From Escherichia coli (GTDB taxonomy: Bacteria > Pseudomonadota > Gammaproteobacteria > Enterobacterales > Enterobacteriaceae): a stretch of DNA of 64,000 nt. The DNA is taken from the NCBI RefSeq assembly GCF_016026235.1, contig NZ_CP065613.1; one strand, 5' to 3'. Every line of letters starts with the position of its first letter. Position 1 is the first letter of the stretch. This document shows positions 50,743-50,768 of the stretch, in pieces. Under the pieces are notes generated by a model. It ran no database searches. It was not told the origin of the DNA and saw only the letters and a list, made by a program, of their open reading frames with translations. The position numbers were made by a program, and so were the translations under genes.

Positions 50743-50768
50743 CGGATAAGGTGTTCACGCCGCATCCG
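50743..50768. repeat. REP (repetitive extragenic palindrome) element between convergent yhfK and argD
   Basis: cggataaggtgttcacgccgcatccg matches the REP consensus (GCCGGATGCGGCGTGAACGCCTTATCCGGC family). Confidence 0.75.

Follow-up and report, generated by a model that had tools for sequence, protein, structure and literature searches.

The 66-bp spacer that separates the convergent yhfK and argD genes in this 64,000-nt stretch of Escherichia coli DNA (the window) is a decayed BIME-2-type pair, formed from a y-type REP and an inverted z2 REP that stand tail to tail across a short T-rich linker. We are highly confident in the identity and history of the element as an eroded y REP that lies beside the remnant of a z2 unit. 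A decayed and immobile pair of this type is probably also the best overall explanation of the observations described below, and we lean slightly toward the view that the element is mostly neutral, with only incidental effects as part of the 3′ UTRs of its neighbors. The features that we assign to the spacer and its borders are as follows.

50725-50727, plus strand: yhfK stop codon TAA (ORF 48625-50727, 700 aa; TIGR01667 YccS/YhfK, 922.6 bits, NCBIfam)
50728-50742, plus strand: shortened 5′ spacer (27-29 nt in the sister-species homologue; about 11 nt and GTAG, at 50741/50742, are gone)
50743-50768, plus strand: y-type REP core in REP orientation (published y positions 7-32; 25/26 identical to the consensus)
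50769-50771, plus strand: y REP tail ACA (positions 33-35; consensus GCA); the GT...ACA variant also occurs in bona fide K-12 y REPs (L087 30928-30962)
50772-50776, plus strand: T-rich linker TCTTT of a tail-to-tail BIME, S type
50777-50793, minus strand: z2-type REP remnant (iREP on the plus strand), with z2 9-mer hits at 50779-50787 and 50785-50793
50794-50796, minus strand: argD stop codon TAA (ORF 50794-52014, 406 aa), which abuts the z2 remnant

Genomic Context of the Element

The string cggataaggtgttcacgccgcatccg occupies exactly positions 50743-50768, where a preliminary description of this DNA had placed a REP palindrome between two convergent genes. Both the position and the gene arrangement are upheld. 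The ORFs and their NCBIfam matches identify yhfK and argD, the latter through model NF003468 (acetylornithine/succinyldiaminopimelate transaminase, 787.7 bits), with crp upstream and pabA downstream by the same means. The two stop codons enclose the spacer (50728-50793), wherein the y hairpin begins 14-15 nt from the yhfK stop codon and lies 22 nt from the argD stop codon. The 301 nt around the spacer are identical in E. coli O157:H7 strain TR01. In K-12, an 18-codon ORF named yrfJ (b4820; 54 nt with its stop codon) is located on the argD strand at 3490132-3490185 (L001 4133-4186) and overlaps the argD start.

One matching place each was found in 5425 of 5426 complete E. coli genomes, and this place was yhfK/argD in every case among the matches listed (5425 genomes, one place apiece). 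Because there is exactly one such place in each of the 5425 genomes, we see no sign of amplification or tandem expansion. The MG1655 RefSeq annotation contains no REP feature at the yhfK/argD locus. This absence is uninformative, since there are no REP features anywhere in the MG1655 record, and a canonical y/z2 pair at 5565-5670 is equally unannotated. No published listing of a yhfK/argD REP was found in the supplements of REP papers with expression tables, and our literature search found the two genes named together only in work on a Salmonella crp deletion.

The Palindrome Is a Truncated y-Type REP

The E. coli y REP is 35 nt long and is characterized by a 5′ GTAG, an A12A13/G26C27 bulge, and protein contacts at T11 and G32, whereas the z1 and z2 types are 29 and 37 nt long, respectively (PMC3333891, PMC8266576). 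A blastn-short comparison of the window with the y consensus returned 25/26 identity over y positions 7-32 (E = 1.5e-7). The sole difference within this core is a change of C16 to T, which creates a G·U pair, and the core has kept its AA/GC bulge (A12A13/G26C27) as well as T11 and G32, the contact bases. Read on the minus strand, the string differs from the REP core CGGATGCGGCGTGAACGCCTTATCCG at one base. No other site this close occurs in the 64 kb, and 100 shuffles gave no REP-core site with one mismatch or fewer. The 35-mer centered on the element is found at at least 40 places in each of the 5425 E. coli genomes with a match. The palindrome is real, its occurrence is far beyond chance, and it is a member of a high-copy family. 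As is characteristic of y REPs, it is a dispersed, high-copy repeat that is extragenic, being located here in a convergent intergenic region.

None of the four bases of the 5′ GTAG is matched, such that the window reads AACT at the corresponding positions and AACTAT in place of GTAGGC. By comparison, GTAG is present in most of the 31 REP-like units that we found in 250 kb of K-12 sequence. The basal pairs G5-C34 and C6-G33 are missing as well, and a U-A pair (50742-50769) replaces only C6-G33. The palindrome that remains is thus 26-28 nt in length (50742-50769), compared to the 30-40 nt by which REPs are recognized.

A covariance model for the y REP, called R1, was built from eight canonical copies present in two K-12 regions and searched against the window, three held-out K-12 regions, and the orthologous loci. 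The window element scores 32.7 bits (E = 2e-7) as a local match to positions 7-32, compared with 44.5-59.8 bits for held-out intact y REPs, 31-37.6 bits for z2 units evaluated with the same y model, and at most 14.1 bits for the best other window hit and background. The sole REP-derived family in Rfam, naRNA4 (RF02564), models the y-linker-z2 unit of REP325 and has a gathering score of 59.5, and the window falls below this value at 25.6 bits. The REP/BIME profile scan that the preliminary description proposed as a check is therefore negative at the level of the pair and gives only a truncated, local match for the single unit. Likewise, the statement that the sequence matches the REP consensus is true only of the core. 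It does not extend to the GTAG or to the basal pairs, and the score is below that of every intact y REP tested. The element is unmistakably REP-derived but is a truncated copy.

The weak 14.1-bit hit to the y-REP model, at 55591-55621, results from its GCCGGA/TCCGGC arms. We rejected this candidate as an ordinary terminator-like hairpin (GCCGGACG...CGTCCGGC) that is followed by CTTTTCC. The hairpin is located directly after a 393-aa plus-strand ORF (54402-55583) and before an 847-aa ORF (55845-58388).

A z2 Remnant Completes an Ancestral BIME-2-Type Pair

A single REP unit had originally been proposed for this spacer. This claim fails, because natural alleles, sister species, and two z2 9-mers reveal that positions 50777-50793 are the remnant of a z2 REP in inverse orientation. 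Two pieces are joined at a shared GCG in this remnant, namely TTCCTGATGCG (z2 positions 37-27) and GCGTCTTAT (z2 positions 18-10). A total of 27 nt has been lost, made up of the 16-nt foot TCAGGCCTACGCCCAT, where CTAC was located, and 11 nt from the inner stem and loop. Strain 317 has an additional 11 bases immediately 3′ of the element, and the resulting sequence, GCCTGATGCGACGCTGACGCGTCTTAT, is an oppositely oriented z2 REP. The inner hairpin of z2 is intact in strain 317 and in the 92-bp allele described below, and the foot is intact in loci L005, L006, and L007.

A second REP candidate, at 2716-2759 (GTAGGCCTGA...CTTATCAGG), was dismissed. It lies inside tRNA-Ile(GAT) and consists of two chance words of 9-10 nt from the z2 consensus. 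The genes for tRNA-Ala(TGC) and tRNA-Ile(GAT) occupy positions 2596-2671 and 2714-2790 on the minus strand, which is the typical spacer pair of an rRNA operon.

Stepwise Decay of the Pair

One genome per species was scanned for the junction, and 80 syntenic loci were returned, 79 of which were measurable. The yhfK and argD stop codons are at most 2 nt apart in 44 of the 79 species, and the stop regions overlap in 37 of those 44. Spacers longer than 30 nt are present in 28 of the 79, mostly REP-bearing, from Escherichia, Citrobacter, Salmonella, and some Enterobacter species. Given that the genes abut or overlap in 44/79 related species, the spacer owes its existence essentially to REP insertion.

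Four other Escherichia lineages were compared: E. albertii, E. whittamii, Escherichia sp. MOD1-EC7003, and a divergent genome labeled E. coli SCPM-O-B-8794. All four have a GTAG-bearing y unit, a T-rich linker of 5-7 nt, and a z2 iREP, the fullest of which ends in CTAC. In alignments, the GTAG junction reads AAACC-GTAG-ATCGG in E. albertii, AAACC-ATCGG in K-12, and AAACT-ATCGG in the window. Each Escherichia locus examined carries one pair at most, and there are no tandem BIME-2 copies. The naRNA4 scores fall from 68.9 bits (L007) to 61.1 bits (E. albertii), 49.6 bits (E. whittamii), 44.2 bits (E. coli long form), and finally to the 25.6 bits of the window, and this stepwise series traces the decay. 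A y unit paired with an inverse z2 unit is present in sister species, including those with the two highest scores, both of which exceed the naRNA4 gathering score, and is no longer found in the window. Although derived from a BIME-2, the locus has ceased to be one.

The E. coli alleles form a nested series. In a rare 92-bp allele, the 5′ spacer is complete, GTAG is present, and the y unit is intact, while the z2 unit is footless but has its inner hairpin. This allele is represented by the sequenced strains Z0117EC0005 and E200086, and its type of match pattern occurs in about nine E. coli genomes. A 77-bp allele, present in approximately 190-200 genomes including 536 and LF82, has lost precisely the GTAG, together with roughly 11 nt of the 5′ spacer. 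The 66-bp allele, carried by the remaining approximately 5200 genomes including K-12 and the window, has additionally lost the 11 nt of the z2 inner hairpin. This nested pattern indicates that the direction of change is loss, and that the z2 foot was lost first, then the y foot and GTAG, and then the z2 inner hairpin.

A GCG microhomology borders the 11-nt z2 deletion, which fits replication slippage. A RAYT-mediated deletion was considered as the source of the clean loss of GTAG and was dropped, given that the endpoints are off the published CC↓T cleavage sites (the arrow marks the site of cleavage). We also abandoned the idea that the long allele corresponds to B2 strains that lack tnpA-REP. 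The correlation is not clean, and ST131 (B2) has the short allele.

Two strains have unusual gene borders at this locus. In E. coli ST131 strain 5506, the IS66-family element ISEc23 (L003 1-1599) ends approximately 30 nt upstream from the only annotated part of yhfK, a C-terminal piece of about 100 nt, and the REP spacer and argD are intact. In E. coli Rb-50 (L092), the argD stop codon is displaced by a 1-nt deletion (TTAC-CCCC) among the final codons of the gene, close to locus position 491. As a result, argD is annotated as 1224 nt rather than 1221 nt, and the spacer is shorter to match.

At the same junction, Citrobacter and Salmonella loci (L009-L028, including S. enterica subsp. arizonae and diarizonae) have REPs of other types, orientations, and numbers. 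Examples include a z1-like iREP located 7-9 nt after the yhfK stop codon, either alone or head to head with a y unit over a 17-nt linker, and some Citrobacter genomes have no yhfK/argD spacer at all. These differences suggest that the junction has been occupied repeatedly or heavily remodeled, and it seems to be a recurrent site of REP landing or turnover. The 5′ spacer (TTGCCAGAAGC...) might derive from the z1 iREP found in Citrobacter and Salmonella, but palindromic units align in either orientation in cross-genus alignments, and so these alignments neither support nor oppose such an origin.

We propose that a BIME-2-type pair was inserted between genes that otherwise would abut or overlap, and that it was then eroded by deletions. 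These events left the y unit as a footless hairpin without GTAG and the z2 unit as two fragments. A copy that lacks GTAG would no longer be mobilized or recombined and would persist as a neutrally drifting fossil. Any residual activity might then be a by-product of the hairpin (approximately -13 kcal/mol) that is predicted to form in both convergent transcripts.

Hairpin Stability and Sequence Constraint

The 32-nt stretch that includes the palindrome is predicted to fold with an energy of -13.4 kcal/mol on the plus strand (z = -3.6) and -12.7 kcal/mol on the minus strand (z = -3.3). Among E. coli strains, the plus-strand hairpin ranges from -11.3 to -16.6 kcal/mol, compared to -20.9 kcal/mol for the consensus. 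Nucleotide diversity was calculated from 10 E. coli strains spread over the identity range, a small sample to which no phylogenetic correction was applied. The values are 0.097 for the y core, 0.069 for the whole spacer, 0.043 for yhfK third codon positions, and 0.064 for argD third codon positions, such that diversity in the y core is equal to or greater than that of flanking synonymous sites among these strains. No compensatory change was found at any of the 11 stem pairs. Four pairs only lose pairing and one becomes a wobble, and all the stem changes are one-sided. The hairpin looks like it is under relaxed constraint.

The variation is not spread evenly. In 11 E. coli alleles, variable sites cluster at y positions 12-17 and 21, which correspond to the left inner arm, bulge, and loop (50748-50757), and even the bulge bases A12 and A13 are variable among other E. 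coli alleles. The outer stem CGGAU/AUCCG shows no variation across 11/11 E. coli and 4/4 sister sequences. Furthermore, positions 50758-50787 (the right arm, linker, and start of z2) form a 30-nt run that is invariant except for a G-to-T change at 50778 in the O157 lineage. The probability of such a run is approximately 0.004 for a given window of this size, a value uncorrected for multiple windows or phylogeny. This clustering could reflect some constraint, and mutational bias, gene conversion, or constraint are possible causes of the asymmetry between the left and right arms.

Two natural variants alter the predicted folds. First, relative to K-12, the window allele carries G to A at 50733 and G to T at 50778. 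In K-12 and strain 317, the y hairpin is enclosed by an outer helix (CAGGC/GCCUG), and each of the two substitutions disrupts a separate pair of this helix. The whole-spacer fold changes from K-12 to the window from -22.1 to -18.3 kcal/mol on the plus strand and from -24.9 to -16.4 kcal/mol on the minus strand. Second, E. coli strains 7/2 and Rb-50 (L090 and L092) carry ACAGCG rather than AAGGCG at the equivalent of 50748-50753, which closes the bulge in the argD-strand RNA. The result is a perfect 13-bp stem of -21.6 kcal/mol on the argD strand and a weakened hairpin of -11.3 kcal/mol on the yhfK strand. This effect is strand-asymmetric because of G·U pairing.

Transcription, 3′ Ends, and Translation

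A consensus scan for intrinsic terminators made no call at the element, because the stem is interrupted by the bulge. The tail that follows the plus-strand stem, CATCTTTT, contains five T nucleotides in 8 nt. When the linker is joined by T50777 and the O157-lineage G-to-T change at 50778, the run becomes TCTTTTT, which resembles a terminator U tail on the yhfK transcript. In the yhfK mRNA, the hairpin followed by CAUCUUUUU might bring about weak or leaky termination, or might hinder 3′-to-5′ exonucleases after nearby Rho-dependent termination. Our scan found no sigma-70-like promoter near the element, which argues against an independent small RNA gene.

Published transcript data relevant to this locus all derive from K-12, which has a different allele than the O157-type allele of the window. 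The K-12 Term-seq tables list no 3′ end within approximately 200 nt of the element (34888xx-34891xx) under three conditions, and none from 3488800 to 3491999 (PMC7815308). This may reflect low expression of yhfK and argD, as coverage is only about 100 reads. A K-12 Rho termination region has its best coordinate at 3489306 on the plus strand, antisense within argD, where upstream/downstream coverage in 800-nt windows is 106/16 without bicyclomycin and 321/210 with it (p = 6.7e-9; PMC7815308). This best coordinate is approximately 370 nt beyond the hairpin. Thus, plus-strand transcription leaving yhfK appears to end in a Rho-dependent manner near the element, with no sharp end defined by the hairpin.

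More generally, REPs have been described as leaky, partly Rho-dependent, and context-dependent 3′-UTR elements, and convergent gene pairs with even moderately canonical REPs exhibit higher expression (preprint 10.64898/2026.03.23.713779). A functional contribution of the element to expression is therefore possible by analogy. A rival possibility is that the spacer is a working terminator, either bidirectional or specific for yhfK, that also stabilizes mRNA. The y hairpin and U-rich linker would end the yhfK transcript, the palindrome would cap the argD transcript, and the steady-state levels of both mRNAs would be raised, an effect that has been proposed for REPs situated between convergent genes. 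The stability of the hairpin on both strands (z about -3.5), the T-rich tail as lengthened in the O157 lineage, and the Rho-dependent fall in K-12 plus-strand coverage within the 800-nt windows around the region are all consistent with this proposal. In addition, REP325 is a partly Rho-dependent terminator and stabilizer, and 78 REPs lie inside predicted bidirectional terminators (10.64898/2026.03.23.713779).

However, we consider a dedicated terminator and stabilizer unlikely. The terminator scan and the K-12 3′ ends give it no support, the Rho coordinate is well past the hairpin, and the minus-strand tail AUAGUUUA is weak. Moreover, stem substitutions within E. coli are destabilizing and uncompensated, and mRNAs that end in REPs do not have longer half-lives genome-wide, according to the same preprint (10.64898/2026.03.23.713779). 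The earlier suggestion that the REP stabilizes upstream mRNA is possible but unsupported here, with no K-12 Term-seq 3′ end listed at the element and no sign of purifying selection on the hairpin.

Expression of yhfK may also be limited at its 5′ end. K-12 Term-seq data include a strong 3′ end for the crp terminator at 3486794, three bases inside the annotated yhfK start at 3486791, and a Rho-dependent termination region within yhfK at 3487001. In the window, the interval from the crp stop codon to the yhfK start is 48586-48625. Expression of yhfK may depend on read-through of the crp terminator.

A REP located less than 16 nt from a stop codon impairs translation termination, as summarized in PMC12306157. 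The y hairpin would be just inside this range for disturbing translation termination at the yhfK stop codon. One possibility is that it serves to down-regulate YhfK, wherein the hairpin stalls the terminating ribosome and leads to mRNA cleavage and tmRNA tagging. The distance from stop codon to stem is indeed 14-15 nt, compared to 27-29 nt in sister species and in the 92-bp allele, and it was the E. coli deletions that shortened it from about 27 nt. However, this spacing is exactly at the published boundary, the hairpin is weaker than those of canonical REPs, and yhfK expression already appears to be limited by the crp terminator and the internal 5′ Rho site. We therefore judge this role to be very improbable.

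Distances on the argD side permit a related proposal, that the deletions were not neutral. The ancestral z2 hairpin would have been approximately 12 nt after the argD stop codon, and approximately 6 nt after it once the foot was lost, which is inside the published range of less than 16 nt. This hairpin is now removed in about 96% of E. coli genomes. Its loss might have been selected to relieve a penalty on ArgD, with the y hairpin becoming a new and weak brake on YhfK, and the invariant positions 50758-50787 could then be the selected part. We regard this history as improbable. If true, the 92-, 77-, and 66-bp alleles would constitute a natural series that reveals how REP-to-stop spacing tunes expression.

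Mobility and Protein Binding

Mutation of GTAG abolishes binding, cleavage, and recombination or strand transfer by TnpA-REP, which requires the entire REP (PMC3333891, PMC8266576). Because TnpA-REP (RAYT) needs GTAG, and given that the y unit has no GTAG and its z2 partner no CTAC, we infer that this copy is immobile. A RAYT substrate combines a GTAG-bearing REP on the strand that is cleaved with a CT cleavage site located in the iREP or the linker. The type-I iREP cleavage motif TGCC↓TGAT reads TTCC↓TGAT in the z2 remnant of the window. The same G-to-T change at 50778 that alters this motif also lengthens the T run after the hairpin.

The preliminary description had attributed binding of gyrase and IHF to the element. 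No match to the IHF consensus WATCAANNNNTTR with two or fewer mismatches is present in 50700-50820, and hence none lies within 20 nt of the spacer, and the 5-nt linker is of the S type rather than the long IHF-binding L type of BIME-1. Thus, binding of IHF is not supported. For comparison, the y and z2 units of the K-12 pair at 5565-5670 are separated by approximately 35 nt, and we take that pair to be an annotated IHF-site element. DNA gyrase reportedly binds or cleaves at the y-S-z2 unit (Espeli and Boccard, 1997), and the window no longer preserves the z2 partner of such a BIME-2 pair.

An active element would be a current RAYT substrate as well as a gyrase- and IHF-binding site that structures the chromosome. 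Some attributes expected of such an element persist. Apart from GTAG, the determinants in the core (the AA/GC bulge, T11, and G32) are kept, K-12-type alleles preserve the type-I TGCC↓TGAT motif in their z2 remnant, and O157:H7 carries a REPtron. However, GTAG is absent from the plus strand and CTAC from the z2 remnant, and GTAG mutants are inactive in vitro (PMC3333891). The altered cleavage motif of the window, the lack of an IHF motif and L linker, the destroyed z2 partner with its low naRNA4 score (25.6 vs. 59.5), and the absence of amplification in 5425 genomes likewise argue against activity. Current function of this kind is exceedingly improbable.

Implications and Comparison with Known Systems

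This locus offers a caution for annotation, in that a core resembling a REP but lacking GTAG should not be assumed to share the mobility or protein binding of an intact REP or BIME. The locus also provides a worked example of the birth of a BIME between otherwise overlapping genes and its erosion by small deletions, with every intermediate present in sequenced strains. The natural 92-, 77-, and 66-bp alleles are a ready series for examining REP effects on termination, mRNA decay, and stop-proximal translation of yhfK and argD.

Several known systems share features with this spacer. Rho-independent terminators likewise have a GC-rich hairpin followed by a U-rich stretch, as on the yhfK transcript, but here the stem has a 2×2 internal loop, the U run begins 4 nt past the stem, and no K-12 3′ end is associated with it. 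BIME-1 elements (RIB/RIP) combine y and z1 units with a long IHF-binding L linker, whereas the window has no L linker, z1 unit, or IHF consensus. The ancestral inverted REP doublet is of the kind that is thought to be mobilized as a REPIN by a single-copy Y1 transposase, the RAYT. In contrast to such substrates, the window copy has lost both GTAG and CTAC and is predicted to be inert, and its locus is single-copy with no recent movement seen.

The closest relative of the remaining hairpin is the E. coli y-type REP (palindromic unit Y, 35 nt, GTAGGCCGGATAAGGCGTTCACGCCGCATCCGGCA), with which it shares the bulge, a 4-nt loop, T11 and G32, and 25/26 bases at positions 7-32. It belongs to this family of at least 40 copies per genome, and is extragenic at the 3′ ends of convergent genes. 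Compared to an intact y REP, the window copy is without GTAG and the basal pairs and scores 12-27 bits lower than held-out copies, and its change of C16 to T weakens the inner stem such that the hairpin is 5-8 kcal/mol weaker than that of a canonical y REP.

At the level of the whole spacer, the ancestral layout of the locus is identical to that of BIME-2, with a y REP, a T-rich linker of 5-7 nt, and a z2 iREP arranged tail to tail. The window differs in that its z2 unit is reduced to 17 nt in two fragments and forms no second hairpin, with the naRNA4 score of 25.6 bits noted above. The kind of element described here is already known. Few bacterial repeats are better known than REPs and BIMEs, and this degraded copy is an ordinary feature of the genome.
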